The notes below the pieces were generated by a model that saw only the letters and a list, made by a program, of their open reading frames with translations, searched no databases and was not told the DNA's origin. Of a stretch of 64,000 bases of DNA, positions 3,053-44,592 are shown one piece after another. How positions within the stretch are numbered: position 1 is the first letter of the stretch; each line of letters begins with the position of its first letter. The translations under genes and the position numbers were made by a program. The stretch lies in contig CM000432.1 in NCBI GenBank assembly GCA_000165345.1, forward strand, positions 736,001 through 800,000, written 5' to 3'.

Positions 3053-5263
3053 TTAAGTTATTGTTGATTCTTCCGTATCACTTCCCTCAAAATGTGGTCC
3101 AGAAAGCCCCTGGATATCATTACCTGCAGCTTCTCTTTCAGATTCAACAATTATGCTAACGTCCAGAGATATGTTATCATTCGATGCTTCAACTGTTCTG
3201 TTATTTGGGATTTCATCAGCTGAAATTTGTCTGCTCTCAACTACGGGTGAGGCATATACACTAGCAGGCATTGAAACCGAAATTTTAGACATACTGCTCT
3301 TTAAATCAGTGGAGCTTTCTCTCGAAATGTTGGAGAATTTTTCAAACAAATTTTCTAAATCTTTTTGCTCTGAAGATTTTGTCGTTAATGTATTACCAGT
3401 ATATTGGCTTTCTTGCCTTCCATTTGAAATACAACTGTTTAAGGAAACAGATCCAGTAATCTTCTCATCTGAACCATTATTTCTATTTTTATTGGAACAA
3501 ATTTCTCTTTGATCGTTTTTACATTCACATTTAATCTCTATCTCTGAGCCCTCTTTTTCTGACTGGCATACACATTCTTTGATTTCTTGAGAAATCATTG
3601 TCAATTCTGCTCCAGAGAAAGTATTAGTATGATCTATTAGATCTCCAAAAATTTCATAATTATATTTTTTATTATGAATAACATCTGAACTATAGCAAAG
3701 TTCCTCGACCTCTGATAACTCTTTTGTAAGAATTGATACCTTTTGTTCAAATTCTGGCTTGGAAATAACTATGCCATTTTCAGAGCTTACTTCAGATTGA
3801 GAGCTTGATTTACCTCCGGAATTGCAATTCAGAGACTTTGCAAAACCATACCATACCGATCCTGCAAGAGTTAAACAAATACCAGTAATAGTGTGAACAC
3901 TTGCATGGTCATGGAATATTATGAATCCACCTGCTGTTTGGGCGCAACTCTTGAACATGCCTAACACATTAAATGTAACTGGGGAGGTATACCCTACGAC
4001 CAAAAATGTAAAGTAATTCAGAAGCATTGAAAGTAATCCGCACAATATCAACAAAGTCCAAAGTCTAAAGAACTCAGGTGAATTTGTATTAAAAGCAGCC
4101 GAACCCATTATCAATTCTAATTCACGGGCAAGGAATATGCATGGTATTAACAGAATGGTAGAAATACATTGGTTATATTTCATTAGTTGTATTGCATCTC
4201 CATTGAAATAATTCATACATTTTTTCATAAATACATTATAAAATACTTGGCAGAATGATGATGCTAATCCTGTAACAATTCCCATAGCTGAAAGAGTAGA
4301 CCTGTCTAGAGAGCCTATCAGAAAACCTGCACAAACGACTATGCATGCAAGAATAGATTGCCAAGTTTGTTTTTGCCCGAGCATAAAATATGATACAATA
4401 ACAGTGAAGATCAAAGACCCCGATCTTGCGAGTTGATAAGTTGAAACCTGTACATATTTTAAACAAATATTTCCAAATGCAACGAGCCCGACAAAGCAAA
4501 TTGACATAGGTAATATTTTTAGTAACTTCTTCATTTCAGCACTGAACTTAATGTTAGTTCTTTTCTGTTTCGCCTTTTCATTAACTGTATTTTCTTCAAT
4601 TCTAATGTTCTGTGAAGAGTTTGCTACAGAGCTATCTTTCAGTTGAGTTTCTTCTATTAAAGAATTTTCTTGGAACGAAATTTCAATGGGAATACTTCTA
4701 TTAGAACCTGCTTCCAGTTCTTTAGCTGAAATATTTTCGTTGGACGTACAATTTGTACTTGTTGCATTTACCTTTCTTGTTTCATTTTCTTTCCTTGGGT
4801 TTGTACTATCTCCGGAATTTTCAGAAGAATCCTTATTCATTTTTGACATGTTTGGAGTTCTTCTAGAAAGTGATAAAATTCCAAAGCAAAATACTCCTAC
4901 AATCTGTTGAACCCATGTTGCAAATACAGGAAAGGGCGCAACTTTATCAAAGAGCCAATGATTATAGTAAATAATTGCAATTGATGTAAAAAAATACCCA
5001 ACTATCGTATATAATGTTAAAAATATGTTATTGTTGTTAGAGAGCCTAATTCTGCTAAATATTTTGTTCTTCTTTGGATTAACACTTTCCTTGCCATCTT
5101 TTCCAATATTAACTAAGTTATCGCATTTATTGCCAAGTATTCCTTGTTCCAAATCTCTATTTAAGTCGCTTTCTATCTCGAATGAAGGATTTTTAAGTTT
5201 TGCTTCCGCTTTAAGACTCTTTTCTTCAGATGAATTATTAATCTTTGAGTCGCTTGAAATCAT
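3053..5263 (-). CDS. TPT/SLC35-family nucleotide-sugar transporter-like membrane protein with long Ser/Asn/Glu-rich N- and C-terminal extensions and an internal low-complexity insert
   Basis: Multi-TM core (LTLYTIVGYFFTSIAIIYYNHWLF ... GSLIFTVIVSYFMLGQKQTWQSILACIVVCAGFLIG ... NYFTFLVVGYTSPVTFNVLGMFKSC) resembles GDP-fucose/UDP-sugar transporters. The ORF-track start 5269 is TTG; the first ATG is at 5263. Confidence 0.7.
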   Translation of the reverse strand: MISSDSKINNSSEEKSLKAEAKLKNPSFEIESDLNRDLEQGILGNKCDNLVNIGKDGKESVNPKKNKIFSRIRLSNNNNIFLTLYTIVGYFFTSIAIIYYNHWLFDKVAPFPVFATWVQQIVGVFCFGILSLSRRTPNMSKMNKDSSENSGDSTNPRKENETRKVNATSTNCTSNENISAKELEAGSNRSIPIEISFQENSLIEETQLKDSSVANSSQNIRIEENTVNEKAKQKRTNIKFSAEMKKLLKILPMSICFVGLVAFGNICLKYVQVSTYQLARSGSLIFTVIVSYFMLGQKQTWQSILACIVVCAGFLIGSLDRSTLSAMGIVTGLASSFCQVFYNVFMKKCMNYFNGDAIQLMKYNQCISTILLIPCIFLARELELIMGSAAFNTNSPEFFRLWTLLILCGLLSMLLNYFTFLVVGYTSPVTFNVLGMFKSCAQTAGGFIIFHDHASVHTITGICLTLAGSVWYGFAKSLNCNSGGKSSSQSEVSSENGIVISKPEFEQKVSILTKELSEVEELCYSSDVIHNKKYNYEIFGDLIDHTNTFSGAELTMISQEIKECVCQSEKEGSEIEIKCECKNDQREICSNKNRNNGSDEKITGSVSLNSCISNGRQESQYTGNTLTTKSSEQKDLENLFEKFSNISRESSTDLKSSMSKISVSMPASVYASPVVESRQISADEIPNNRTVEASNDNISLDVSIIVESEREAAGNDIQGLSGPHFEGSDTEESTIT

Positions 5264-7485: not shown

Positions 7486-8235
7486 CGTATCTATTATTGA
7501 AGATTTAAGTTTAATATCTTTCTCACGCATTTCTTCTTGGTTATTCACATTACTATAGGTTCCGAGTTTGAAAATTCTTTCAATTACTGCCATTTCCGCA
7601 GCAGTAGTTTCCATGCCAACGAAACCCGCCCAGTCATTTACTACACAACCTGCACTAACAACATCGCTTCCTCTATTAACTGTACCTGAGGTAATTGGGA
7701 TTTGGAGTAATGCCGACAATTCATTCATTTCATCTTCAGATGCTAATGTATGCACAATTCCACCTTGATTTGTGAACTTTGCGTAACTCCCTACCAACAC
7801 ATGCCCAGCTATTGTAGTCCTAAATACTTCAACTCCAAGCACATCCTGAATTATCTCCTCGGACTCTTTATCCATATCTGTATGAATAAGAGCAACGTAG
7901 TCGTTGCATGCAATACAGTTGCCCAAAGCACTTAGACGCTCCTCTATTCTTTGAACTTTTACATTATCTGGTAAACTATTCCTCAGGTGTTGAAGCTCTT
8001 GATCAGTTGCCATATTTGAAACCAAAAGGCCATTGCGATTCCCAACTGTGCATCTTCCTACTAGCCTTGTACCTCCTATTAAGGTATTAATAATAGGGAT
8101 ATGGTCCATCAATTCTGCTTCAAAGACAGATGTAAATGCTGCAGAGGAGCCATGAGCTAGTAAACAATATCTATTAGTAAGGTTCGCAAAAACTCCGATT
8201 TCGGAAGAACTTTCATATGCAACTCTTAACGCCAT
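7477..8235 (-). CDS. EIF6: Eukaryotic translation initiation factor 6 (eIF6)
   Basis: Near full-length collinear match to eIF6 ([31 protein letters not shown] ... [14 protein letters not shown] ... RLSALGN ... NDYVALIH ... [14 protein letters not shown] ... [10 protein letters not shown]). ATG at 8235. Confidence 0.95.
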
Positions 8236-8433
8236 ATTGCAAATTTTATGTCGAATAAATTTGATACCTATATTAATTGGTACTTATATTAAAAACCCGC
8301 CACAACCGTTCTGGTCACGGCGCCATTTAGCCTGTAATTTTAAAAGACAAGTGGAGTTGTAAAGCTAAGGCGTTATACAGGCCGTAAAGCTCTTTTAATA
8401 AGTTGTAACTGGAAGTGGAACGGCATTTTATAT

Positions 8434-9375
8434 ATGGAACACAAATATGGCGATTTAAATAGTTCTTCGAGAGTGTACGAGCTTACAGGAATTAATGGAG
8501 AATGTTTAGGTACATGCTTTACAAGTGATGGAAGGTCTATTTTGGTTTGCGGAAATGACCCACAGATTCTCCTCTTTCAAAACTATGAAAGTAGTAAACA
8601 TGGAATATCTATGCAAGGGCATACTAAGGCTGTTCTAGAAGTTTCCATGAATAAACAGCATGGCCTTCAGTTTTCCTCTTGTTCTGCAGACAAAACAGTA
8701 CGCTACTGGGATATTGAGACATTAAAATGTATCTCAAAGTTCAAAGGGCACACAAAGATAGTAAATTCGTGTAAATGTAGCAATACCTTGATTATTTCAG
8801 GGTCTGATGATGGGCAAGTGCGTGCATGGGATACTAGAATAAAACAAAATAAAGCGTGCGTTTATAAATATGATAATAAATATCCGATAACAGCAGTGTC
8901 ATGTGAGGGAGAATTGTTTCGAGTTTTTGCAGGAGGAATTGACAATAGCATCTATATGATCGATATGAGAATATCTACCGCTTTCACCCTTTCTACGCTT
9001 AACGATACAATTACGGGGTTGGATGTTAGCCCCGACAATTCTTTTCTAGTGTCAAACTCTATGGACAACCAAGTAGTCATATGGGATATTCGACCTCATT
9101 CAGATTTACAAGACAGGAAAATGGGAACTCTGGTTGGTGCAAAGCATAATTTTGAGGCAAATTTGCATAGGGTAAGATGGAATTTTGATGGGGATCTATT
9201 GGCTGCAGCTTCTTCAGATACAATCATATATATTTGGTCGTTTAAACACAAGAAATTAATTAATAAGTTGGTTGGTCACAAAGGAGCTACTTTAGATATT
9301 AGCTTCCATCCTAGCCTTCCCATTATTGCCTCGGCTGGTTCCGATGGCCGTGTGATTGTTGGAGAATTTATTTAG
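8434..9375 (+). CDS. SNRNP40: WD40-repeat protein, U5 snRNP 40 kDa (SNRNP40/Prp8-binding)-like
   Basis: Collinear similarity to SNRNP40 (GHTKAVLEV ... SADKTVRYWD ... KGHTKIVNSC ... SGSDDGQVRAWDTR ... FAGGIDNSIYMIDMR ... DTITGLDVSPDNSFLVSNSMDNQVVIWDIRP ... KHNFEANLHRVRW ... GHKGATLDISFHPSLPIIASAGSDGRV). Confidence 0.8.
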   Translation: MEHKYGDLNSSSRVYELTGINGECLGTCFTSDGRSILVCGNDPQILLFQNYESSKHGISMQGHTKAVLEVSMNKQHGLQFSSCSADKTVRYWDIETLKCISKFKGHTKIVNSCKCSNTLIISGSDDGQVRAWDTRIKQNKACVYKYDNKYPITAVSCEGELFRVFAGGIDNSIYMIDMRISTAFTLSTLNDTITGLDVSPDNSFLVSNSMDNQVVIWDIRPHSDLQDRKMGTLVGAKHNFEANLHRVRWNFDGDLLAAASSDTIIYIWSFKHKKLINKLVGHKGATLDISFHPSLPIIASAGSDGRVIVGEFI

Positions 9376-9603
9376 CTGCTACTAATCAACTAAATCTACT
9401 CAAGTAAAAGATATAAATAGGTAGAATTTGTATAGCTATATGCAGAAATATATTTTTTTTTAATTAGCCAACTGTTTCTTTTATTCGTTGCAAACAATTA
9501 GGGCATCCGTACTACATGGAAAGTTTGAAAATAATAGAATAAAAACCATAATAAATTTAGAACAGATTCGTTTTAAATATATTTTAGTTCGATTAGTGTA
9601 TCA

Positions 9604-12084
9604 CTATGCTAAGTATAAGAGCTTTTCCGGGTCGTCTTGATCATTTTCAAGATACTCTCTTTCTATTAAATATTTAATTTTGTCGATTATCATTATTTCA
9701 GAGGGTTTATATTCGCATAGTTGGGATGAGACATGGGCAATGATATCGCTTCTTGTCATTTGTCCTTTAATTTTCATAATTTTAACAATTGCTGCTTCTA
9801 TGGCATGGCTTTTGTCGTATTCAGTACGATTCTTTCGAGTTGTTTCTGTTTGATGTGGTAATTTAATAATTATTGGAGATATGACATCGGTTGAAACAAA
9901 CTCAAAATTCACTTCAAATACTGGATTGTCTGGGGAAATTTGGGTGTTATTGACAAATTTCAAAATTCCTACGTCAGAATATAAAGGTTTTATATGTTTT
10001 AATATGATGGACTTTTCTGTATTTAGTAAGCTTTGAAGCTCAAGTAAAGATAAGCTGATAAAATCATTGAATTGTAGCAGAATACATGCTTGGTACGTAT
10101 TACAATGTATTTCAAAGAATTTAAATGTTCCATTTGGCGTTGGCAGCTTGTAGTCTAAAACACATTCCCCATACCAATATATCCAAGTGAGCTTTCTGTG
10201 GCTAGTTTCTAAGGAATAAAATGTTTCAAAATCGCTTATACAGTTTTTTAGGTTAGTTGGCAGGTTTATGTTTGAGGAGTCTAATGTAGGCCAATTCGAA
10301 CTTGTCAAAATATTAACGGCAAAGTCAACTTTCGTAGGAATTAGAGCCTTAACAATTTGTAAACCCAAATCAGATATTTTGTTGTCTTTTATTTCAAACT
10401 CTTTATTTTCTATTTCACCTTTTTTAATGTCTCTTAAGTACTCTTTGAATTTATTATTCAAATTTCGAGTCATTCGAATATCCGTAATCATCCCTTCTAA
10501 CTTGGATGTGAACCCAGCTCCACATTTGCTTTTAAGTAAAGATATAATATACAGCTCATTTTTTTCTAAGGATAAGTGATATTGAAGAAGCCTTTTTGCA
10601 AGTAGAAACTTGTAAATTTGAAGAAAGTAATCTTGAAAGTGGATGTAGGAAAAAATTTCCACAAGTTTTCCAGCTAATACAGCAAATTGATTGTTAGACA
10701 GGAAAGCGTTGAAATCGTTCCCAATCTCAGAGTAGCTGTTTTTTAATAATAAGTCGCAATAAAAACAAACAAGTTTTGCCTGGTTTTGGCAACCAACTTC
10801 TAAATTAACAATTACTTCAAAAGACTCACGAATTGTCTTTTGAACTGCAGTATCATTATCAAAACAGTTTTCCAATAAGTATATTGAATGATCAAAAAGA
10901 GAAATAATCGTTTGCACGAATAAGGTTTCGTATTTCATATTCATAAAAGGAACAATAATTGATTTTCCAAGCATCCAAGGCCAATTTTCGGCTAAATTAT
11001 GCGTAGATTGGATTTGGTCAAAAGTTTCTTCATTATCAATCTCAATATCTTCAGCAAAATGAATTGACTCCGAGAATTTATTAATTACCAATTGGCCACA
11101 CTCAGTTAGGTAGTGCTTAAATTGAGTATTTAATGCATGCATTCCATGATGAATTGTAGAAAAGTGTCTAAACAATAATTTTAGTTGCTCGAATTCATTG
11201 TCTAAAAACATCTTCTTAATAGAGCTAGAATTTGAAAGAATCGCTTTCATTTCATCTGCAAGTAATATTTGAGTTAATGATTTTTGTATTTTTTTCCTCG
11301 TAGAATTAAATAAACACAATTCGCATAGCTTATTCTCAAAATTAACAATGCCATCCACGCGAGATAAGTATTCTAATAATTTGTCATTCCTAACCCATTT
11401 GGGTGCAAGACTCCCATAGTAAGAGTTTAAGCGATTAATAACGATATTTTCTATCTCATTTTCGTATATTTCTGGGATTTTGCTCTTCTCGCTCATTTCC
11501 AAACACACATTCACAACTCCTTTCATAAGTTCACTGTCAATATCTTTGGTTCCAAGCCTGTACTCCTGAATAGAATTACTGAATGAAAGTGAAATACTCT
11601 CTTTGAATTCCAAATATATAGTTTCATAAAATATAGTGATTCCTTTTAGCATTAGACTTCCTTCTCCTGCAATCTTAATGTGATATTTGTTCAAGTAACC
11701 AAAAAAGCGTTCCATCCAGTGCGTATAAATTAAGTGGTTACTCCATGAAAGCCGGAATTCAAACAGTAGCCCAGATCCTGTAGAATTTTTCAATTTACTA
11801 ATAACGTTTTCTTTCAAAAAATTCTCAATAGTTTCAGAATATTTGGTAAATAACTGCCTACTCCAATTTCTAGGATTTTGGGTGCACATATTATAAATTA
11901 AAGTATAGATTTTTGAATAATCTTTGGCAGTAAATAAGTTCTTTACTGTATCATTAATCTGGGTCCTATTTAGCAAATATGTTTCCAAAGGCTCGATAGC
12001 TTCTCTTTTAATTTGGGCCCATCCCTCCTCAAACCCAATGTTTTTATCCGAATCTGTGCATTCTCTATTGAGTGATTCCGACAT
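9604..12084 (-). CDS. Cullin family protein (CUL1-like)
   Basis: 824 aa with a cullin-repeat architecture and a C-terminal neddylation / winged-helix tail (IEAAIVKIMKIKGQMTRSDIIAHVSSQL ... IDKIKYLIEREYLENDQDDPEKLLYLA). The ORF-track start 12117 is TTG; the first ATG is at 12084 (MSESLNRE...). Confidence 0.8.
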   Translation of the reverse strand: MSESLNRECTDSDKNIGFEEGWAQIKREAIEPLETYLLNRTQINDTVKNLFTAKDYSKIYTLIYNMCTQNPRNWSRQLFTKYSETIENFLKENVISKLKNSTGSGLLFEFRLSWSNHLIYTHWMERFFGYLNKYHIKIAGEGSLMLKGITIFYETIYLEFKESISLSFSNSIQEYRLGTKDIDSELMKGVVNVCLEMSEKSKIPEIYENEIENIVINRLNSYYGSLAPKWVRNDKLLEYLSRVDGIVNFENKLCELCLFNSTRKKIQKSLTQILLADEMKAILSNSSSIKKMFLDNEFEQLKLLFRHFSTIHHGMHALNTQFKHYLTECGQLVINKFSESIHFAEDIEIDNEETFDQIQSTHNLAENWPWMLGKSIIVPFMNMKYETLFVQTIISLFDHSIYLLENCFDNDTAVQKTIRESFEVIVNLEVGCQNQAKLVCFYCDLLLKNSYSEIGNDFNAFLSNNQFAVLAGKLVEIFSYIHFQDYFLQIYKFLLAKRLLQYHLSLEKNELYIISLLKSKCGAGFTSKLEGMITDIRMTRNLNNKFKEYLRDIKKGEIENKEFEIKDNKISDLGLQIVKALIPTKVDFAVNILTSSNWPTLDSSNINLPTNLKNCISDFETFYSLETSHRKLTWIYWYGECVLDYKLPTPNGTFKFFEIHCNTYQACILLQFNDFISLSLLELQSLLNTEKSIILKHIKPLYSDVGILKFVNNTQISPDNPVFEVNFEFVSTDVISPIIIKLPHQTETTRKNRTEYDKSHAIEAAIVKIMKIKGQMTRSDIIAHVSSQLCEYKPSEIMIIDKIKYLIEREYLENDQDDPEKLLYLA

Positions 12085-28922: not shown

Positions 28923-31343
28923 ATGTCAGTTATAGGTCTTGACATAGGAACTATAAATGCAGTGGTTGCGACAATTAATAGAGGGGCTGTAACCATTGTG
29001 AGAAATGAACTCTCAGAAAGAACGACTCCAATATTGGTTGGTTATACTGACACTGAACGTTTAATTGGCGAGCCGGCTTTGACAAAAATGAAATCAAACT
29101 ACAGAAACACTTGTAGGTATATGAAACCCTTGATTGGTATGCTCCCAAATAACGTGGTAGAGACGGAGAAACTTTATTCATTGGCGGAAATCACAACATG
29201 CGAAAACGGTAACATTGGGTTCAGAGTAAACTATAAGGGCAATCAACAAGTAGTTTCCTTGACTAGTGTTTATGCATCTTTTCTCAAGCGTCTCAAGGAA
29301 AACACTGAGAAGAGTACAGGCCAATCTGTTAGAGATTTGGTTATTAGCATTCCAGGATATTATGATAACGTTGCAAGACAAAATGTATTAGATGCTTTAC
29401 ATATTGCAGGGATCAATTGTTTGAGACTTATGAACGAGGAAAGTGCAGTTGCTCTTGATTATGGCATATTCAGATCTAACAATTTTGCAGAAAATGAAAA
29501 TGTTATCGTAGCCTTCATAAGTTGTGGGGCGGGATACTTTTTTGTTTCCATTGTGAGATTTACTAAAGGCAAGTTTGACATTCTTGCAACAGTTTATGAG
29601 AACAGAATTAGTGGGCGTTTAATGGACTACGCTATTATGGAATTTGCTGCTAGAGACTTTAACCAGAAGTATAAGACTGACCTATTAAAAGACCCAAAAG
29701 CTAGGTTAAAATTAGAGGATTCTGCAACAAAATGCAAGAAGATTCTAAGTGCTAACCAGGAGGCAGCCTTCGTAACAGAATGCGTCGACGGTGAAAACGA
29801 TATTAGTATGATGATTGAGAGAAAAACATTCGAAGAGCTTTGCTCTAATATGAGCGGATATATTAACAACATGGTTGATTCTGCGCTAAAGCAAGCTGGA
29901 ATTAAGATTGAAGATATCTCTTCAATTGAGATAATCGGCGGTTGTAGTAGAATCCCATGGGTTCAACGCGCAATTGGGGCAGCCTTTAATGATAAGGAGC
30001 TTTGTAAGACTTTAAATGCTGATGAAACGGTTGCAAGAGGCTGTGCTCTTCAAGCTGCTATGTTATCTCCAGTTATCAAAGTACGTGAATTCAATATGAC
30101 TGAAAGATTCGCTTATGAAGTTCTTTTGTTTTGGCAAAACTCTGCTGGATCCTCAGATTTCAAATCAGCAACTCTCTTTTCACTTGGAAGCGACTTGAAT
30201 GTTTTAAAGAATTCCACATTTTCCAAAACTGAACCATTCGAGATTGCACTCAGATATGCACCAAATTCACATACAAATAATCTTGATCTTGGAAGATACC
30301 TTGTTGATCTCCCTCCTCAACAAGATTCGAAAGTCAAGCTTTACATTAGACTAGATAAGAATGGAATTGTCTGTCTGGAAAAAGTTGAACAGATTAAAGA
30401 GGAAGTAGTAATGGAGAGTGCTCCCACACCAACTCCGGCATCAGGAAATCCTGAAGACTCCAACTCTAATGACGCGCAATCAAATGAGTCTAAACCTGAA
30501 GAACAGCCAGCTGCCCCCCAACCTACAATGAAGACAAGGATTAAAAGGACTAATGTACCATTCAAACAGATTGGTGAATTACAAGGATATTTGAGCGAGG
30601 AGTCAAAGGCTAAGTTCAAGGATGGAGAAGCCCGTATGAGTACAGAAGACTTGCTGATTCATTTAACACGTGAAAAACTGAATGAATTAGAGTCATATGT
30701 ATTTGATATGCGCTCTAAAATCTCACCTGGAGGCAATTTAAATCAATATGCAGAGAAGCAATCAATTGAGAACTTCTTAGGGTTCTTGGCACAGGCAGAG
30801 AACTGGATCTATGATAACTATGAAAGCACAAAAGAGATCTTTGAAAAGAAGCTAGAGGAACTTAAAGTATATGGAGACCCGATTGAGATGAGATACCAAG
30901 AGTCTCTTCAATTAGAGGAGATTCAATCCTATATGAATTCAATGTTTGAGCATTTCCAGAAGGTATGCACAAATGTGGACATGGAATTTACTCCAGAAAG
31001 CAAACAGCAAGTAATGGATGGTTTGAATCAAAGATATCAGGAATTTAGTGAAGCTATCAGAAAGAATTTTGAAGATAGAAACAAGTTTGAAAACCTGATT
31101 GTTTCTTTAGACTCTCTGAGGCAAATGTGCGATGAAGCCAAGAAATATTGCAACGATAATTTAATTCCAATCCCGAAGGTAACTGAACCAACAAATAATG
31201 GAGGTGAAAAGATGGACGATTCTAAGCCATGTGCAGAACCAGGAAACAATGGTGATGTACAGATGGAGGGAGATAACAACGGAGCTCAGGGGGCTGGAGA
31301 AACCTCAGAAATCTCGCAAGAGTCAGAGATGAAAGATAATTAG
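28923..31343 (+). CDS. Hsp70-superfamily Hsp110/Sse1-type chaperone (nucleotide-exchange-factor class)
   Basis: MSVIGLDIGTINAVVATINRGAVTIVRNELSERTTPILVGY ... is an Hsp70-like NBD. The extended substrate-binding domain with an acidic insertion and a long C-terminus is typical of Hsp110. Confidence 0.88.
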   Translation: MSVIGLDIGTINAVVATINRGAVTIVRNELSERTTPILVGYTDTERLIGEPALTKMKSNYRNTCRYMKPLIGMLPNNVVETEKLYSLAEITTCENGNIGFRVNYKGNQQVVSLTSVYASFLKRLKENTEKSTGQSVRDLVISIPGYYDNVARQNVLDALHIAGINCLRLMNEESAVALDYGIFRSNNFAENENVIVAFISCGAGYFFVSIVRFTKGKFDILATVYENRISGRLMDYAIMEFAARDFNQKYKTDLLKDPKARLKLEDSATKCKKILSANQEAAFVTECVDGENDISMMIERKTFEELCSNMSGYINNMVDSALKQAGIKIEDISSIEIIGGCSRIPWVQRAIGAAFNDKELCKTLNADETVARGCALQAAMLSPVIKVREFNMTERFAYEVLLFWQNSAGSSDFKSATLFSLGSDLNVLKNSTFSKTEPFEIALRYAPNSHTNNLDLGRYLVDLPPQQDSKVKLYIRLDKNGIVCLEKVEQIKEEVVMESAPTPTPASGNPEDSNSNDAQSNESKPEEQPAAPQPTMKTRIKRTNVPFKQIGELQGYLSEESKAKFKDGEARMSTEDLLIHLTREKLNELESYVFDMRSKISPGGNLNQYAEKQSIENFLGFLAQAENWIYDNYESTKEIFEKKLEELKVYGDPIEMRYQESLQLEEIQSYMNSMFEHFQKVCTNVDMEFTPESKQQVMDGLNQRYQEFSEAIRKNFEDRNKFENLIVSLDSLRQMCDEAKKYCNDNLIPIPKVTEPTNNGGEKMDDSKPCAEPGNNGDVQMEGDNNGAQGAGETSEISQESEMKDN

Positions 31344-31893: not shown

Positions 31894-33570
31894 TCATTCA
31901 GACTGCGTATATGATGCCTCTTGTTTATATTTAGAGTGATTATCAGCCACTTTGGGCTTGGAGGCAGTTATACATTGATTCTGAGAATATAAGTACGGAG
32001 GTAGAGGCGGAGGAACCTTCTTACCATTTCTATATCTTGGGCGGTTTCTATCATACTTCATATAGCATGCATTACAGCAAATTTGTTTTTCAACATATGT
32101 AGTGGGTGGAATATTACTTGATGGACTTGTTTCAGGTGTAGACGAGATCTGATCTGACTGAGTGTTGAACGCATGGTTAGATTCTTGTTTTAGAGATATC
32201 GAATGTTCATCTTTATTGCTTGAATATAGTTCTCCCAAATTAAGAAATCTCCACTGTGAAGTTTGAGTAGTTCCGCAAACAATACAAATAGCAGAGCTCT
32301 TGTCAATTTTTCTTCTTCCTCCAATATTTGATTTAATGGATTTTCTAGGCTTTTCAGCCTTTCTACTTTCTTGTCTGAGACCTATTTTAGATACCCAATC
32401 CCCTAGTGTGTTGGAGATCTCGAATCCTCCATCAAAATTATTGAGTGACTTTCTAGAATTTGAAGATTGTGATTTACTAATAGGCGAAAGAATTGAGGGA
32501 ATTGTCTGGGAAGAGTGAATTGGGGAGCTATTCACTGAAATACTACTGCTGCTCACTCCACCCGTAAAATTGACAGATGGTATATTTAATCGGCTTTCTG
32601 AGCCTCCAATAAAATTGGCTGTAGGAGTCAAATTAGCACCTACAGCCCCCCCATTACACGGAATTTGAGATAGCGATGCCAATGATACCATATTTGGAGC
32701 CTGAGATCCTCCATTTTGTAACTCAAATAGGTTAAAAGGCATAACTGTGGATCCAGTTCCAGATCCAGTTACAGTTACAGTTCCAGCCCCAGCCCCAGTC
32801 CCAGTCCCAGATCCAGATCCAGTTCCAGTTCCAATTCCAATTCCAATTCCAGTTCCAGATCCCGGCCTAGATCCCTGTCCAGTTAATGCATTATTATTAC
32901 CTTGCCAACCAAGATACATTTGTCTAAGTAATGGATTAAAACATCCTGCTGTTGTACCTGCTATTCCGTATCCACCAGCTAAAATTGGAGAATACATAGC
33001 CATGGCCATTTGATTGTATAATGCTAACTGTTGATAATAAGCATTCATAGTGTTATTCCACTCTATCTGAGATCCAGGATAAGGAAATAAGCTATTTGAC
33101 GAATCTACTTTCGATTTTAAACTCCCTTCATCTACACTGAATGAATTGAAACTATTCGAGTTATTACTCTGAGAGTTATTGACTAAGCTTGGAGGAAGCA
33201 GTTGAGCACCTGTTGCTGGGCTACATGAAGAAAATCCAGCTCCTAATCCTGTATTATTAGAAGTTGATCCTCCATTTGGGAAGTAACTATTTGAAGCCAT
33301 TTCTTTATTCTTCATCTCAGTAATTTTTGAAAATATTGAATAAAAGTTACTCAGGTTTGAATATGCGTCATCTCTTTCATTTACTATATTGCATCCTGGT
33401 GACGAATTCGCACTAATAAACATAGTAGGAGGACTATCAGGAACATTCTGAGATGCCAGCTTGCCAGTTGTTGAGTAGATAAGCATAGGATCTTGCGCCA
33501 AATCTGAAGCTTTGACATTACTCATCTCGGGAATTGCCTCTTTGGATATTAGATTTGTGCTGAATGACAT
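31894..33570 (-). CDS. Low-complexity nuclear protein with a divergent GATA-type zinc finger
   Basis: C-terminal CIVCGTTQTSQWRFLNLGEL ... (~50 aa Ser/Thr-rich insert) ... QICCNACYMKYDRNRP matches the two halves of a GATA finger (CxxCx4TxxWR ... CNACxxxxxxxRP). The N-terminal half is Asn/Ser/Gly-rich. Confidence 0.65.
   Translation of the reverse strand: MSFSTNLISKEAIPEMSNVKASDLAQDPMLIYSTTGKLASQNVPDSPPTMFISANSSPGCNIVNERDDAYSNLSNFYSIFSKITEMKNKEMASNSYFPNGGSTSNNTGLGAGFSSCSPATGAQLLPPSLVNNSQSNNSNSFNSFSVDEGSLKSKVDSSNSLFPYPGSQIEWNNTMNAYYQQLALYNQMAMAMYSPILAGGYGIAGTTAGCFNPLLRQMYLGWQGNNNALTGQGSRPGSGTGIGIGIGTGTGSGSGTGTGAGAGTVTVTGSGTGSTVMPFNLFELQNGGSQAPNMVSLASLSQIPCNGGAVGANLTPTANFIGGSESRLNIPSVNFTGGVSSSSISVNSSPIHSSQTIPSILSPISKSQSSNSRKSLNNFDGGFEISNTLGDWVSKIGLRQESRKAEKPRKSIKSNIGGRRKIDKSSAICIVCGTTQTSQWRFLNLGELYSSNKDEHSISLKQESNHAFNTQSDQISSTPETSPSSNIPPTTYVEKQICCNACYMKYDRNRPRYRNGKKVPPPLPPYLYSQNQCITASKPKVADNHSKYKQEASYTQSE
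32750..32885. repeat. Imperfect hexanucleotide microsatellite (CCAGWY)n, ~22 units, inside the GATA-like CDS
   Basis: ccagttccagatccagttacagttacagttccagccccagccccagtcccagtcccagatccagatccagttccagttccaattccaattccaattccagttccagatcc. On the coding (minus) strand it encodes a (Gly-Thr/Ser/Ile/Ala)n dipeptide repeat. Confidence 0.85.
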
Positions 33571-39566: not shown

Positions 39567-41498
39567 TTAATCTTTAGAAAAGTACTTGATGAGTAGATCC
39601 TTGATAAATCCCATAATATCTTTTGCTCTTTCTAATGTTGGTGATTCTACATATACCCTTGCAACTTCCTCAGTGCCTGATGGTCTTATAAATGCTCTGG
39701 AGTAATTATCGTTCAAATTTGAGATATAATTATCAATGCTTTCCTGTATTGCTTTTGGTTCAACTAGAAATTTTTCTGTTTCTTTATCACATATTAGAGT
39801 CTCGAGGTCGCATCTATTTAAATAGACTTTATCTTGAATGACATTAAGATCGTCATAAAGGCGCATAGAAAATTTGCAGCCAAATCTGGTTTGTATAAAT
39901 TTTCTTGCAACTTCAAATGCAAGCATATCAGAGATTGCATCTCCAATTACAGGATTAAACAAGTTCAGGAAATAAGTTAATAATCTGCATGAATTATTAT
40001 TTATCCCAAATTTTGACATCTCTTCAACCCATGATTTTAACTTGTCTTCTTTGTGAATTACAGTTCCATGGCCATTTGCCTCGAAATATACTGCAATGTC
40101 ATATTCTTCTGCTTTTCTGTGGAGATGCTTAACTCCAGTTGGGACACAGTTAATAGAAAATCTGAAATATTTTGGATTTAATGCACTAAGTAAATCATTT
40201 AGATACTTGGTACTAGCTCCATTAGCATATGCTGTTTGGATTACACCTAAACACAAAGTGGGAATTGTGTCTGTTTCAACTGTTATCTCTCTTATGGATT
40301 GACTTAATAGGGTAGCAACCACAAGAACATAGCATGCTGAAATTCTATCTCCATCAATCAAAAAAATTTCAGAATTATCATTTTTATGAAAATGATTAGG
40401 TACAAAGTATATCAATCTGTCAGCATCCCCATCAAAAGCCGCAACATAGTCAACTTTATCTGAATCATAATCTTGGTAAGAATAGAACCCAACAGGAGGG
40501 AGGGTATTTTTTTGAATATGTTCTGCTCCGCAGCCATCATTAAGTTTTTCAGGATTATCGCAGTTAATCATTTTTAGACTCAAACCAGCATAAGATAGTA
40601 TCTTTGAAACCCTATCAGCGTGGTATTTTCCCACGCCATTCGCCACATCTACCAACAAGATCCCATTTTCATTTATCTTGTAATTTTCAATTTTGTTGGG
40701 TTTTGCCTTAAAAAAAAGATGGCTATTTTGAGTAAAAAGGAATGAGTGATCATCATTTTGTATCAAATTCACTAACTGTTTAAAGTAATATTCATGATAG
40801 GCAAAGTAAACCTCAAAGAACGATGAGACCATTTCACTCTTATTTTGGTTGCTACATTTCTCCAAGTCTTTAATAAGATTTTCGAACATTACAGTTTTTT
40901 TAATATCAATTGGAACTCTGTCGATGATCAATCCATTTGCAAATGCTACCATGAAATGCAACTGCGGAGTAGTCGTAAATCCAAAGTTTAAAAATCTCGA
41001 GATTCCGAATTCTGATATAAATCTCTCAATAGACTCTAGAATATATTTTGATGATGGTCTGGTATCGAAACCTACTATTAGTTTTGCTTTTGAAAGCTCT
41101 ATTTTGTTTAGCTCATCATCGCCTAATGCCAACTTCTCCTTGAAATAATGCATCAATACTCTCACTGGATTGCTCGCATCCTCATGGTTTACAGCATTAA
41201 AGCAAATTTGCTCAAAATCTTTGTTCAGCATACTTCCTGTAACATCCACAATCTTCACTCCATTATCTTGAATTGGGTTATGCGATGCTGTTATTACAAC
41301 CCCGACCCACTTTTGTTCCAGAATACTTCTTAGGCAAGCAATTATTGTGCAAATCATAGCCACTTGTTCTACTCTATGTGGATTCTCCTCATAATTCATT
41401 CTGAATCCAGCTGTTCCATATATTAATGGCCTTAAACTTTGTAACTTTCCACATTTTTCTATTAGAACTTTTGTCACTCTTTCTTCAAATTCGCTCAT
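39567..41498 (-). CDS. Phosphoacetylglucosamine mutase (AGM1/PGM3 family alpha-D-phosphohexomutase)
   Basis: N-terminal GTAGFR plus the active-site ITASHNP phosphoserine loop, and the four-domain phosphohexomutase length (643 aa). Confidence 0.88.
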   Translation of the reverse strand: MSEFEERVTKVLIEKCGKLQSLRPLIYGTAGFRMNYEENPHRVEQVAMICTIIACLRSILEQKWVGVVITASHNPIQDNGVKIVDVTGSMLNKDFEQICFNAVNHEDASNPVRVLMHYFKEKLALGDDELNKIELSKAKLIVGFDTRPSSKYILESIERFISEFGISRFLNFGFTTTPQLHFMVAFANGLIIDRVPIDIKKTVMFENLIKDLEKCSNQNKSEMVSSFFEVYFAYHEYYFKQLVNLIQNDDHSFLFTQNSHLFFKAKPNKIENYKINENGILLVDVANGVGKYHADRVSKILSYAGLSLKMINCDNPEKLNDGCGAEHIQKNTLPPVGFYSYQDYDSDKVDYVAAFDGDADRLIYFVPNHFHKNDNSEIFLIDGDRISACYVLVVATLLSQSIREITVETDTIPTLCLGVIQTAYANGASTKYLNDLLSALNPKYFRFSINCVPTGVKHLHRKAEEYDIAVYFEANGHGTVIHKEDKLKSWVEEMSKFGINNNSCRLLTYFLNLFNPVIGDAISDMLAFEVARKFIQTRFGCKFSMRLYDDLNVIQDKVYLNRCDLETLICDKETEKFLVEPKAIQESIDNYISNLNDNYSRAFIRPSGTEEVARVYVESPTLERAKDIMGFIKDLLIKYFSKD

Positions 41499-41625
41499 TT
41501 AAAATTAACAATTATTTTTCAATGGCCTTTCAAGTTTTGTATGCAAATTTTATGCTCTTTCCATTTCTGTCTAATTTCTTTTTATTTTTATAATGCAATG
41601 ACGTGTTATTTAAAATGACTCCTAG

Positions 41626-41651
41626 CCCCTCCCTTCCCCTCCCCGCCCCCC
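41626..41651. other. 26-nt C-tract cccctcccttcccctccccgcccccc (G-quadruplex-capable on the minus strand) in the divergent promoter between the PAGM gene and the putative 41948 gene
   Basis: Read directly from the sequence. It has at least five C3-6 runs with 1-3 nt spacers in an otherwise ~70% AT intergenic region. It is followed by CGCGCATG and GCATGC motifs. Confidence 0.8.
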
Positions 41652-41947
41652 AACGCGCATGTAAATACCGGTATAAACGCAATGAAAAACGCATGCAAAA
41701 TCTTTGTGGACATAATTACGTGTATGCGTTAAAAGGAAGCTGAGGAAGAGATACTGTTAATATTGCGAGTCGAAGTATAGTTGAAATTGAAAGCATTCAA
41801 ATTTATTCTATTAATGAGCTTGTAAAACAATCTGAAATTAATCAATTACTGAGAATATCATCCACATTATTTTTGGGTGAACCTAAAAATCTTCTTTTTT
41901 CTAATCATAGAATCATTTAGATTTGTTCAAAGTAGCAATCAAAAATA

Positions 41948-42469
41948 ATGGAAGATCAGCCAATACAGCAAGAAATAAATGAGGAGCTCGAGGATAAAAC
42001 CAGTGAATTCAAGGGTATGCAAGAAGTTAGTAATTTAGAACTGAATGAAAACAATGAAGAGAGCATTGAGTATTTTCAGAATGAGCGAAAGTCAAATGAA
42101 CTATTAGACTCCAAACCTTCAATTCAGGAAAGCAAAATTTCAAATATAATTGAAGCAAATACAAGCAATGAAAAACTATATGTTAACATCAGAAATGAAA
42201 ATGTAAGTTTAAGAATATTATTCTAGGGAAATACATCGATAAATTGCCCCTTGAACCAATAACGAAAAACATTTAATAAAACGAAATTTTAGGGAATCTA
42301 TAAAGAAAAGATTGACCCAAACAATTTTTATGAAATGTTGAGTTACGAGCTATACAGATCAAATGGGATAGAAAGGGACTATCCAATTGATTTATGTTTA
42401 GATATTCAGGAAGATATTGATAATATATTACCATTTCTACAAAAGTCAATAATTAATAGAAAGAAATAA
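41948..42469 (+). CDS. Putative two-exon gene for an acidic ~143 aa protein (exons 41948-42202 and 42293-42469); unknown function
   Basis: Exon 1 is the ORF-track ORF up to ...IRNEN, followed by a consensus GTAAGT donor at 42203. A 90-nt intron ends TTTTAG, and exon 2 (GIYKEKIDPNNFYEMLSYELYRSNGIERDYPIDLCLDIQEDIDNILPFLQKSIINRKK) stays open for 58 codons in AT-rich DNA. No homology recognised. Confidence 0.3.
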
Positions 42470-42504
42470 ACTAGATAAATTATTATAATTAAGCAGAAAC
42501 TGAT

Positions 42505-44592
42505 TTACATATTAACTAGTTTCAAAATATAATATAATGGCTTGAGCTCTTCAATCGCACTTTTTGAGGGCTCATCATCGCCAGCAGGGAAGGTTTCTTT
42601 TCTACCAAAATATCTCCTTATTGAAATAACCGCATTTTTTCGAACAGTATTATCAGCAGATTCAGATAAAAGCATATTGCAACCCAATTTAAGTGTTGCG
42701 TTTGAATTATTATTCTCTATTATTTCGTTAAAAATGTAATATAAAGAGACTTCTTGGTATTTCCATGCAGATAATATACAATTTGCATCAATTGGGAAGT
42801 CATTACATGGAATGCCTTCTGGATCTAAAAGAACTCTAAGCTTCGGAAATTTGATAATTATTTGACCGCAAAGCTTAATTAAGAAAATACTCGAATCAAC
42901 TTCACCAGATTTGCACAATACGAGTGAAATTTCTGCGATAACAATTATGAGACGGTAAAGATAGCTCGAATTAGAACTTGAAAAAATGCTTGTATTAAGA
43001 ATGACTGTTGGTAGCTCTTTATCCTGAAGGGAAATACTCATCTCTTTCAAGTAATTAGAATCAGCTTTTTTAGGAGAATTGAGAATATTCTTCATTTTTA
43101 AATGTTCTTTCTCAAGTCTTAAAACAAGATATCTCAAAATCCAAGAATTATCTTCAAGTTGTTGCTCATTAAGTTGGTTTCCTCTTTGAAGTAAAGAAAA
43201 GCAACATTTAAGTACCATTACAAAACTTTTCCATTTTAGATTATCACTCTTATAGAGCTTTCCTTTTATAATTTCAATTAACTCAGATCTTATCTTCAAG
43301 CTTATCCTATTACTATACTGAGATATTCCTAGATAAACATGTTCAAGTTCATCCAAATCCAAAAGTAAAACTTTCGAGTAAAACGTGAAAAGGTGCTTTA
43401 AAATTTGTTCCTCTCTTTCTATAAGTATCTCAACCTTTACTCTAGTTGTACTTGTCTGTTGTATCTCATCAATAATTTCCTTGCTAATGGTGTTGGTGTT
43501 TGGACCAAAAATCCTCCTAAATTCACTCCTTGACTCTTCTATTCTATGCCAAGGAGCGTATTTAGTGAATGGTATAAGGATCCATTTTGAAAGTGTGAAC
43601 ATATTTGCGGCATTCTTCTTACTCTTTCTGTTAAATAAAGTCTCATGTATCATATTCACTGCTTCAACTCCTGTTTCAAGAGATGCATCGTTGGCTAACA
43701 TGTTTGTTAATCCTTCACAACAGTAAGAAAGGCAAGATCTCGTCTGAAGATCTTCTTCATTTCCTGACATTAAAAATAATATGATCATTCTAAGTAATAT
43801 AGTATGGTGATTGAAGTGATATGTCGCATCAAGTAAATCCATCGTTGACCTTAAAATGGCAGATTTGTTTTTAGTGATGGTTGTATTATTTTTAACACCA
43901 AACCCAAGTATTTTCTTTAGTAGAAGGCATGTTCTCTTATAAATATTGAGAATTTTCCTCTCAAAAGAGTGTATTTTTTGAGTTTCTTTTCTGAGACTTA
44001 CTTTATCATTTGAAGCATCAGAACCTGCGCCTTCTAAACCAATTATTTGACTTGAAATCTTATATCCAGGAACAAGATCTTTCACAACTATCAAAAGAGA
44101 AATAATGCAAAGCTCAATCGGGAAATTCACAGTACTCTTATTTAAATTACTTGAATTCCAATTTTTTTCGCAATACTCTAAAAGTACTGTGAGCAATTCA
44201 ATATTATTTTCTGGGTCAGCCATTACCAAATCACAAATTTTTGCAACATCTTTTGGTCTTTTTATTGAAACAATTTCATTATTAAAGTTATCGTCATTGT
44301 CATTAACTTTATTCTGTTTAACTTTCTTTAACTTAGCAGCTTCCTTCTTTTTTAGATCTTTTAAACGTCTCAACTCAGTTTTTGAAAGAATTTGCATATT
44401 TTCTTGACTTTTCCCCGTATTATCCCCTTCCAGATCTTGTTTTGCCTTCTTATTTACATTGTTTGTAGGAATATGCCACCCTTTTCTCTTGTTATCTAAA
44501 ATAGGTAACCCTGTTAGAGTATCCGCATTATCCGACCATTTTGCAAACTGAGTGGCTCTTCTTGCTCTTTCGTACTTTTCTTCAATTTCCAT
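42505..44592 (-). CDS. Hypothetical alpha-helical protein, possibly of the NOC3/CBF-domain nucleolar family
   Basis: Intact 695-aa ORF with a true ATG, a Lys-rich N-terminal segment and a long helical-repeat body. The family assignment is a guess. Confidence 0.5.
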   Translation of the reverse strand: MEIEEKYERARRATQFAKWSDNADTLTGLPILDNKRKGWHIPTNNVNKKAKQDLEGDNTGKSQENMQILSKTELRRLKDLKKKEAAKLKKVKQNKVNDNDDNFNNEIVSIKRPKDVAKICDLVMADPENNIELLTVLLEYCEKNWNSSNLNKSTVNFPIELCIISLLIVVKDLVPGYKISSQIIGLEGAGSDASNDKVSLRKETQKIHSFERKILNIYKRTCLLLKKILGFGVKNNTTITKNKSAILRSTMDLLDATYHFNHHTILLRMIILFLMSGNEEDLQTRSCLSYCCEGLTNMLANDASLETGVEAVNMIHETLFNRKSKKNAANMFTLSKWILIPFTKYAPWHRIEESRSEFRRIFGPNTNTISKEIIDEIQQTSTTRVKVEILIEREEQILKHLFTFYSKVLLLDLDELEHVYLGISQYSNRISLKIRSELIEIIKGKLYKSDNLKWKSFVMVLKCCFSLLQRGNQLNEQQLEDNSWILRYLVLRLEKEHLKMKNILNSPKKADSNYLKEMSISLQDKELPTVILNTSIFSSSNSSYLYRLIIVIAEISLVLCKSGEVDSSIFLIKLCGQIIIKFPKLRVLLDPEGIPCNDFPIDANCILSAWKYQEVSLYYIFNEIIENNNSNATLKLGCNMLLSESADNTVRKNAVISIRRYFGRKETFPAGDDEPSKSAIEELKPLYYILKLVNM

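Follow-up and report, generated by a model that had tools for sequence, protein, structure and literature searches.

Little is understood of gene regulation in Cryptosporidium, and hardly any of its promoters have been dissected. Among the motifs most over-represented upstream of C. parvum genes is the G-box (5′-G.GGGG-3′; motif 6, KKGRGGGGRR), which is bound on protein-binding microarrays by the AP2 domains of cgd8_810, cgd2_2990 and cgd1_3520, and G-box clusters often carry AP2_1-like (GCATGC) motifs too (PMC3734150, PMC4117751). The same motif goes under the names of motifs 2 and 6 (Oberstaller 2013) and G[G/A][G/C]G[G/A][G/A] (Cohn 2010). A G-rich motif was described upstream of 11 of 12 heat-shock genes induced at excystation, with a mean distance of 125 bp between its first occurrence in heat-shock genes and the ATG; for cgd4_3270, named "heat shock 105 kD" and induced 7.4-fold by heat shock, the first motif lies 166 bp from the ATG (PMC2832001). 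The Plasmodium falciparum heat-shock G-box is likewise a G-rich upstream element, recognised by a G-box-binding ApiAP2, and transfection and mutation have shown its role in the promoter (Militello 2004, described in PMC3734150). The E2F/DP sites of C. parvum are represented by motif 4, TTTGGCGGGAAV (PMC3734150), and by the other form [A/T][C/G]GCGC[G/C][A/T] (WSGCGCSW).

We compared with these systems a C-rich tract of 26 nt at positions 41626-41651 of the window, i.e., of the whole 64-kb stretch of C. parvum chromosome 4 that was analysed. A first-pass annotation had located the tract to the exact nucleotide and had read it as a G-quadruplex (G4) or i-motif candidate within a regulatory region, which missed the tandem array of the known G-box (G.GGGG) that it contains. 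According to the reading that we prefer, and to which we assign a probability of about 0.58, the tract would be a homotypic array of four to five overlapping G-box copies, read as duplex DNA in the promoter of cgd4_3310, the phosphoacetylglucosamine mutase (PAGM) gene. Judging from its motif matches, it can be regarded as a new, unusually long example of this known class of cis-element. The tract has four matches to the C. parvum G-box at 128-153 nt from the ATG (published mean, 125 bp), lies like the published sites beside GCATGC-type motifs, and belongs to a motif that is biased to non-coding DNA; moreover, the motif vocabulary of the PAGM promoter is that of the published G-box-bearing promoter of cgd4_3270, 13 kb away. 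It differs in being a contiguous 26-nt array, where the usual G-box is a single site of 6-10 nt, and in lying upstream of an enzyme of a sugar-nucleotide pathway and not of a chaperone. In comparison with the Plasmodium G-box, which belongs to another genus, the Cryptosporidium array is longer and is known from sequence alone. The 5′ part of the tract contains an E2F-like GGCGGG core, but in C. parvum it is without the T-run and AA flanks of the E2F/DP sites.

The 643-aa open reading frame at 39567-41498 on the minus strand was identified as PAGM through a residue-for-residue match to C. parvum Iowa II EAK87792.1 and to CPATCC_001710; the protein is 97% identical to its C. hominis counterpart, and the C. 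parvum gene is cgd4_3310 (PMC9713705), which in the new ID format would be cpbgf_4003310. The neighbours of PAGM are a NOC3-like gene, a CDPK and two alveolin/IMC genes, with synteny kept in eleven Cryptosporidium assemblies. A literature search for transcription-start or 5′UTR coordinates of cgd4_3310 found none. PAGM and the divergent gene are separated by an intergenic region of 449 bp. A Pfam scan of the 143-aa product of the divergent gene found no family, so that the function of this gene is of no use for assigning the promoter. The divergent regulatory region proposed in the first-pass annotation was supported, with PAGM on the minus strand and the 143-aa two-exon gene on the plus strand, and the distances of 128 nt from the tract to the PAGM ATG (41498, minus; span 128-153 nt) and of ~300 nt to the ATG at 41948 (297 nt; span 297-322 nt) were confirmed. 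The adjoining motifs were also found as described, CGCGCATG next to the tract and GCATGC at 41691-41696. The AT content was slightly overstated as ~70%, the window having 33.3% GC and hence ~67% AT. The features of the locus are the following:

39567-41498, minus strand: coding sequence of phosphoacetylglucosamine mutase (cgd4_3310, 643 aa), the gene toward which the putative promoter module points
41567-41574, minus strand: TTAGACAG, which fits published motif 18 (WTAGACR)
41598-41606, minus strand: ACACGTCAT, a conserved block with an ACGT core inside
41616-41621, minus strand: GAGTCA, immediately to the 3′ side of the tract (PAGM sense), which fits published motif 12 (GAGWCA)
41626-41651, minus strand: G-tract, CCCCTCCCTTCCCCTCCCCGCCCCCC on the plus strand and GGGGGGCGGGGAGGGGAAGGGAGGGG on the minus (PAGM-sense) strand, with four overlapping G.GGGG, a GGCGGG core and a canonical PQS with five G-runs
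41654-41662, minus strand: ACATGCGCG (CGCGCATGT on the plus strand), AP2_1-like (ACATGY/CATGC), its position kept in 9 of 10 intestinal species
41665-41674, no strand: ATACCGGTAT, a perfect 10-bp palindrome whose CCGG core is invariant across the 10-species alignment
41690-41697, minus strand: TGCATGCG, AP2_1 motif with its GCATGC core at 41691-41696 (PMC3734150, PMC4117751)
41702-41712, minus strand: TGTCCACAAAG, the best-conserved intergenic block, in which TCCACA is invariant
41948-42469, plus strand: divergent gene of 143 aa in two exons, with a 90-nt intron at 42203-42292, syntenic in every species examined

C accounts for 21 of the 26 nt of the tract on the plus strand. The complement, which is the sense (non-template) strand for PAGM, reads GGGGGG-C-GGGG-A-GGGG-AA-GGG-A-GGGG, in agreement with the initial description of five G-runs of at least 3 with short loops (runs of 6, 4, 4, 3 and 4; loops of 1, 1, 2 and 1 nt). 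The G4Hunter score of -3.04 (25-nt window, plus strand) makes it the strongest compositional outlier in the 64 kb; the runner-up site, at 32784-32808 within a coding ORF, scores -1.92, and the maxima of 200 dinucleotide-preserving shuffles of the window had a mean of 1.50 (sd 0.16) and a top value of 2.16, so that the tract had rightly been called an extreme outlier. By a binomial estimate, 21 or more C in 26 nt have a probability of 1.6e-12 per position, which corresponds to ~3e-5 expected sites on both strands of a 9-Mb genome. Only two canonical PQS were found in the 64-kb window, and only two besides the orthologous tract in 124 kb of Cryptosporidium loci. Gastric Cryptosporidium species have 23-77 predicted G4 motifs per genome, and in C. 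proliferans ~90% of the predicted G4s lie near telomeric repeats (PMC13125899). With so few predicted G4s in Cryptosporidium genomes, a strong PQS in an internal promoter is unusual, and on the basis of these gastric-species counts the tract is probably one of the few strong internal promoter G4 motifs in the genome.

The 449-bp intergenic region showed no differences among three independent C. parvum assemblies (Logan DRR729252, GCA_048859185.1 and GCA_031892065.1), and the C. hominis tract is identical to that of C. parvum. The tract is therefore not an artefact: with the identical tract shared by four independent assemblies, the sequencing error that had been named as a possible refutation was ruled out. 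A telomere-like repeat was also ruled out, since the Cryptosporidium telomere repeat is GGTTTA (PMC13125899) and the locus lies near the middle of the chromosome, ~570 kb into its 1.1 Mb.

In order to examine the surroundings of the tract, we used an alignment of the intergenic regions of ten intestinal taxa, C. parvum, C. hominis, C. meleagridis, chipmunk genotype I, C. ubiquitum, a species known from a Logan run (Logan-run species), C. canis, C. felis, C. xiaoi and C. ryanae. On this basis the tract appears to sit in a promoter module conserved across all ten. The order of the module in PAGM sense is TGTCCACAAAG, TGCATGCG, ATACCGGTAT, ACATGCGCG, G-tract, GAGTCA, ACACGTCAT, i.e., seven short elements in ~120 bp, with ACATGCGCG directly 5′ of the tract. 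The invariant alignment columns fall in TCCACA and CCGG. ACATGY corresponds to published motif 7 (PMC3734150). GCATGC occurs at 22 sites in the window (9 in ORFs and 13 outside) versus 8.1 +/- 2.9 in shuffles, and GGCGCC at 11 sites, 1 in ORFs and 10 outside. Short conserved words separated by variable spacers are the pattern expected of transcription-factor sites, which the elements of the module would be. A search of Rfam with the region 41300-42600 (E <= 1) was also carried out for an intergenic ncRNA, and gave PGK RNA alone (30.1 bits versus a gathering threshold of 50.8, E = 0.32), a match that we treated as chance; with no Rfam family at 41300-42600, the reading of the conserved blocks as ncRNA is unsupported.

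The four overlapping G.GGGG matches of the tract are at 41626, 41636, 41641 and 41646 (minus strand), and its GGGAGGGGAA fits KKGRGGGGRR. GAGGGG accounts for two of the four copies, the published protein-binding microarray consensus being G[T/C]GGGG. The window contains 36 matches to G.GGGG, a total only modestly above that of the shuffles (23.8 +/- 5.3; 36 was reached in 2 of 100), and the tract is the sole multi-copy cluster among them. Their density is 1.15 per kb outside ORFs versus 0.20 inside (ORFs of >=150 aa), a difference of ~6-fold despite the lower GC outside. The intergenic DNA has about twenty further sites, all in single copy, and for several of them the distance to a downstream ATG is 130-340 nt.

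The published expression data were also considered. The gene cgd4_3310 is in expression cluster 21, which was scored GAGA-like and not G-box-enriched (Oberstaller 2013). The motifs over-represented upstream of this cluster are the G/A-rich motif 5 (GDGRRRRARARRRARA), whose MEME consensus GGAGGCGGTCGAGGAG was reported for 6 of 6 cluster 21 genes, together with GAGWCA and WTAGACR (motif 18), the latter with over-representation reported for cluster 21 alone. Set against the cluster consensus, the tract is the sole comparable G/A-rich stretch upstream of PAGM, and GAGTCA and TTAGACAG, corresponding to the cluster 21 motifs GAGWCA and WTAGACR, are both near it. As to E2F, the C. parvum tract has the GGCGGG core and matches E2F/DP motif 4 (TTTGGCGGGAAV) at ~8 of 12 positions only; at the same place C. 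felis has TTTGGCGGGTAA, with 11 of 12 positions matching, and chipmunk genotype I, C. ubiquitum and C. canis have a G-run without any C. The motifs enriched in the ATAC-seq peaks of sporozoites were those of E2F and poly-T alone, with none of the AP2 type (bioRxiv 10.1101/2025.01.17.633476).

The motif vocabulary of the PAGM promoter was found again in the same window, in the promoter of Hsp105, whose 806-aa product belongs to the HSP70 family (Pfam E = 6e-112):

28654-28873, plus strand: promoter of Hsp105 (cgd4_3270; ATG at 28923), with the same motif vocabulary as the PAGM promoter
from 28654, plus strand: GTCCACAA
28745-28761, plus strand: CATGC-AGAA-GGGAGGGG
from 28789, plus strand: TACCGGTA
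28868-28873, plus strand: GAGTCA

The Hsp105 promoter thus reads GTCCACAA ... CATGC-AGAA-GGGAGGGG ... GGTACCGGTA ... GAGTCA ... ATG, and its oriented elements all face the gene, as in the PAGM promoter, with a spacing from CATGC to the G-run of 4 nt versus 5 nt at PAGM. In the window TACCGGTA occurs twice and GTCCACAA four times, and one of each is at 28654-28796; the two within 300 nt of each other were found in 0 of 500 shuffles. The GAGGGG of Hsp105, at 28756, is 167 nt from the ATG, in agreement with the published 166. This recurrence supports a shared composite regulatory module, and it also ties the G-tract to PAGM and not to the divergent gene. The Hsp105 promoter has a single G-box, incapable of forming a G4, so the putative module would work without a quadruplex-capable tract.

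To follow the tract across species, the sequences directly after the ACATGCG anchor were taken:

C. parvum and C. hominis: TTGGGGGGCGGGGAGGGGAAGGGAGGGG, canonical PQS
C. meleagridis: TTGGGGCGGGAGGGGAATAGAGGGG, canonical PQS
chipmunk genotype I: TTGGGGGGGGGAGGGGGAAAGGAGGG, canonical PQS
C. ubiquitum: TTGAGGGGGGGGAGACTGAGGGG, no canonical PQS
Logan-run species: AAAGGGGCGGGCAAA, no canonical PQS
C. canis: TTTAGGGGGGCC, no canonical PQS
C. felis: TTTTTGGCGGGTAA, no canonical PQS
C. xiaoi and C. ryanae: AATGGAGGGTTT, no canonical PQS

A G core (GGAGGG, GGCGGG, GGGGCGGG or G6-G9) follows the anchor in all ten intestinal species, and in the gastric C. andersoni there is no alignable block at the position of the tract. 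Of the 11 species, 4 have a canonical PQS (C. parvum, C. hominis, C. meleagridis and chipmunk genotype I), and the intestinal species that lack it (C. ubiquitum, C. canis, C. felis, C. xiaoi, C. ryanae and the Logan-run species) have a single short G core at the same position. Compared with C. meleagridis, identity is 97% in the 5′ block, 97% in the 3′ block, 88% over the whole intergenic region and 79% in the tract, and the same ranking (flanks above intergenic average above tract) is repeated at greater evolutionary distances. The exact sequence of the tract evolves no slower than the surrounding intergenic DNA, whereas the flanking motifs are clearly constrained. The G core being common to the ten intestinal species and the long tract being found in few, the comparison points to a short core that is old and a long tract that arose by recent stepwise expansion toward C. 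parvum. Probably the ancestor had one short G core here, which slippage lengthened in the lineage of C. parvum and C. hominis; part of this trend is ascertainment, because the site was picked as extreme in C. parvum.

Growth of this kind could also be neutral, with one short core (a G-box or the E2F-like GGCGGG) functional and the remainder of the tract a microsatellite-like product of slippage. Species differ mostly in the length of the G-runs (G6/G4 in C. parvum, G4/G3 in C. meleagridis, G9/G5 in chipmunk genotype I, G8 in C. ubiquitum), the identity of the tract is at or below the intergenic average, and 28 unchanged bases are expected ~40% of the time at a substitution-level identity of ~97%, all of which fits neutral expansion. 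Nevertheless, a G-tract of 20-26 nt in an intergenic background of 30% GC would be expected to decay to A/T, whereas high G content is kept in five species while intergenic identity to C. parvum goes down to 60%, and the interruptions regenerate GAGGGG/GCGGGG units and not random sequence. We consider an explanation by neutral expansion as doubtful. [quoted passage not shown] Still, H-DNA calls for a homopurine/homopyrimidine mirror repeat with arms of at least ~10 nt, and the perfect mirror arms of the tract are ~8 nt, with a C interrupting its 5′ part; single G-boxes, moreover, suffice at most other promoters in the window, and such a role seems very unlikely.

In the structural alternative, the G-strand would form a G4 and/or the C-strand an i-motif on unwinding, or an RNA G4 would form in the PAGM 5′UTR, so that predicted structure, and not recognition of the duplex, would control how PAGM or its neighbour is transcribed or translated. 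If transcription began upstream of 41651, the leader would contain the RNA G4 together with a conserved uORF of 4 codons. The pattern of G-runs resembles that of promoter G4/i-motif elements such as the human c-MYC NHE III1 (Pu27), with G3-4 blocks and A/C loops of 1-2 nt shared on the non-template strand, ~100-150 bp upstream of the gene, and an opposite strand that is C-rich and i-motif-capable. The Cryptosporidium tract differs from it in that its G4 capacity is limited to four close species and its folding is predicted only. The claim of a strong G4/i-motif former stood as far as the formal candidate is concerned, and not as the main reading. In its favour are the five G-runs with loops of 1-2 nt, the G4Hunter score of 3.04, the location of the G-strand on the non-template strand of PAGM and the ViennaRNA G-quadruplex model, under which C. 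parvum and C. hominis have a predicted G4 of four layers, at -32.5 kcal/mol; the G4 also dominates the predicted fold of -202..+3, with -53.4 kcal/mol when the G4 term is included versus -25.6 without it. The rarity of predicted G4s in Cryptosporidium (PMC13125899) also fits. The conservation check, however, went against the G4, since the PQS is restricted to four of the eleven species and the other intestinal species keep the module without it. The predicted stability falls to -12.6 kcal/mol in C. meleagridis, -18.0 in chipmunk genotype I and 0 in C. ubiquitum and the Logan-run species, and for C. canis ViennaRNA gives a hairpin of -4.0 alone and no quadruplex. Furthermore, the tract is no more tightly constrained than neutral-looking flanks, and the module at Hsp105 has a single G-box without G4 capacity. 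With G4 capacity confined to four close species, it is unlikely to be the conserved function; the modelled G4 potential is formally very strong in C. parvum but recent and lineage-restricted, and a function for it is possible but unsupported. We judge the structural alternative improbable. Its narrower form, in which the G-box of C. parvum and C. hominis would have grown into an exceptionally stable four-tetrad promoter G4 plus i-motif acting, as DNA or as an RNA G4 in the PAGM 5′UTR, as a structure-dependent switch on the bidirectional PAGM promoter, is quite improbable; if it were true, the supply of UDP-GlcNAc for the glycosylation of mucins and of the oocyst wall would be tied to stress or excystation, and the tract would be a ligand-addressable site, among very few non-telomeric G4s in a 9-Mb AT-rich genome. 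The four readings, as G-box array, slippage product, G4 and chromatin element, are not mutually exclusive.

In the G-box-array reading, which we prefer, an ordinary double-stranded tract would offer several adjacent sites to transcription factors recognising the G-box, the candidate binders being the ApiAP2 proteins cgd8_810, cgd2_2990 and cgd1_3520, or alternatively an E2F/GC-box-type factor on the GGCGGG core. These would act jointly with TGCATGC/ACATGC (AP2_1 type), ATACCGGTAT, TGTCCACAAAG, GAGTCA and ACACGTCAT. Points that speak against this reading are the missing AP2 motifs among those enriched in sporozoite ATAC-seq peaks, the modest excess of G.GGGG over the whole window, the two GAGGGG copies that depart from the microarray consensus, and the scoring of cluster 21 as GAGA-like. 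The anatomy of the tract, its motif matches, the non-coding enrichment of the motif, the way the elements are conserved across species and the second occurrence of the module at Hsp105 were all observed directly; from them we infer that the sites may be occupied, that the factors may be those named above, and that extra copies could raise occupancy or output.

If the tract is merely a G-box array, which is most likely, it is an ordinary finding and a clear instance of a known motif class. The general interest is moderate to low, and the locus is a convenient test case for the dissection of Cryptosporidium promoters. The PAGM module, compact, deeply conserved and well delimited, suits a first mutational promoter analysis, C. 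parvum being now engineerable. The species form a natural series, with one to five G-box copies, that could test whether copy number tunes output, and could separate duplex recognition from G4 formation in an AT-rich parasite with very few predicted internal G4s.

Finally, a short Logan contig, which was kept out of the evidence, was observed to stop in a run of 17 G (G17), at 109-125 nt from the PAGM ATG on its upstream side. The run at the contig end could be a real G-tract breaking the assembly or a poly-G artefact of two-colour chemistry.

The promoter of Hsp105 (cgd4_3270) carries the same elements, in the same orientation, as the promoter of the phosphoacetylglucosamine mutase gene PAGM (cgd4_3310, minus strand, ATG at 41498), in which the 26-nt C-tract at 41626-41651 is read as an array of G-boxes (G.GGGG). 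These elements are listed below with the other short features considered here.

Short sequence features of the Cryptosporidium parvum window
28654-28873: Hsp105 promoter elements, upstream of the ATG at 28923, namely GTCCACAA, CATGC-N4-GGGAGGGG, TACCGGTA and GAGTCA
41665-41674: perfect 10-bp palindrome ATACCGGTAT, its CCGG core invariant in the ten intestinal species aligned
41550-41564, minus strand: candidate four-codon upstream ORF ATGGAAAGAGCATAA, between the C-tract and the PAGM ATG
32787-32808: canonical quadruplex motif CCCCAGCCCCAGTCCCAGTCCC, inside a 558-aa minus-strand ORF (31894-33570)

Because both content and orientation agree, the sequences suggest that the two promoters have a common composite module or belong to one regulon, which would tie a heat-induced chaperone to an enzyme of the UDP-GlcNAc pathway. 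TACCGGTA occurs only twice in the 64 kb, each time in a G-box promoter, and the palindrome ATACCGGTAT has no counterpart among the motifs named in the cited literature. Across the whole window the E2F-type palindrome GGCGCC is found at 11 sites, 10 of them outside ORFs with 150 aa or more, and GCATGC at 22 sites against 8.1 ± 2.9 expected; both counts agree with the promoter grammar published for C. parvum.

Besides the C-tract, CCCCAGCCCCAGTCCCAGTCCC is the sole canonical quadruplex motif in the window, and its appearance is that of a short repeat within coding sequence, not that of a regulatory element. Long G-runs were also observed at two loci of other Cryptosporidium. The C. andersoni locus has a G15-A-GGG-A-GGG tract (9681-9703) at the 3′ end of an alveolin-like gene (8146-9723), with a homopolymer far longer than any in the C. 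parvum window; this tract may be genuine, or it may have arisen in the assembly. The Logan contig SRR31861040 (Cryptosporidium sp.) has a G17 run at its end (1-17), 109-125 nt upstream of its PAGM ATG. The run is either a poly-G artefact of two-colour chemistry or part of a long G-tract at which the assembly broke off.

The ATG and stop of the candidate upstream ORF are retained in C. parvum, C. hominis, C. meleagridis and chipmunk genotype I, and not in C. ubiquitum; such ORFs are so far undescribed in Cryptosporidium (PMC12246861).

On the opposite side of the intergenic region, the 40 nt directly preceding the ATG of the divergent 143-aa gene (41948-42469, plus strand) are well conserved across species and may, for this reason, be its 5′-UTR. 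A weak Rfam match to PGK RNA just upstream of this ATG (41848-41937, minus strand; 30.1 bits against a gathering score of 50.8, E = 0.32) was judged to be due to chance. Also on this side, C. hominis carries an 18-bp insertion (about 3640-3660 of its locus), a duplicate of the adjacent AATTGATTAATTTCAG and the sole length difference between its intergenic region and that of C. parvum.
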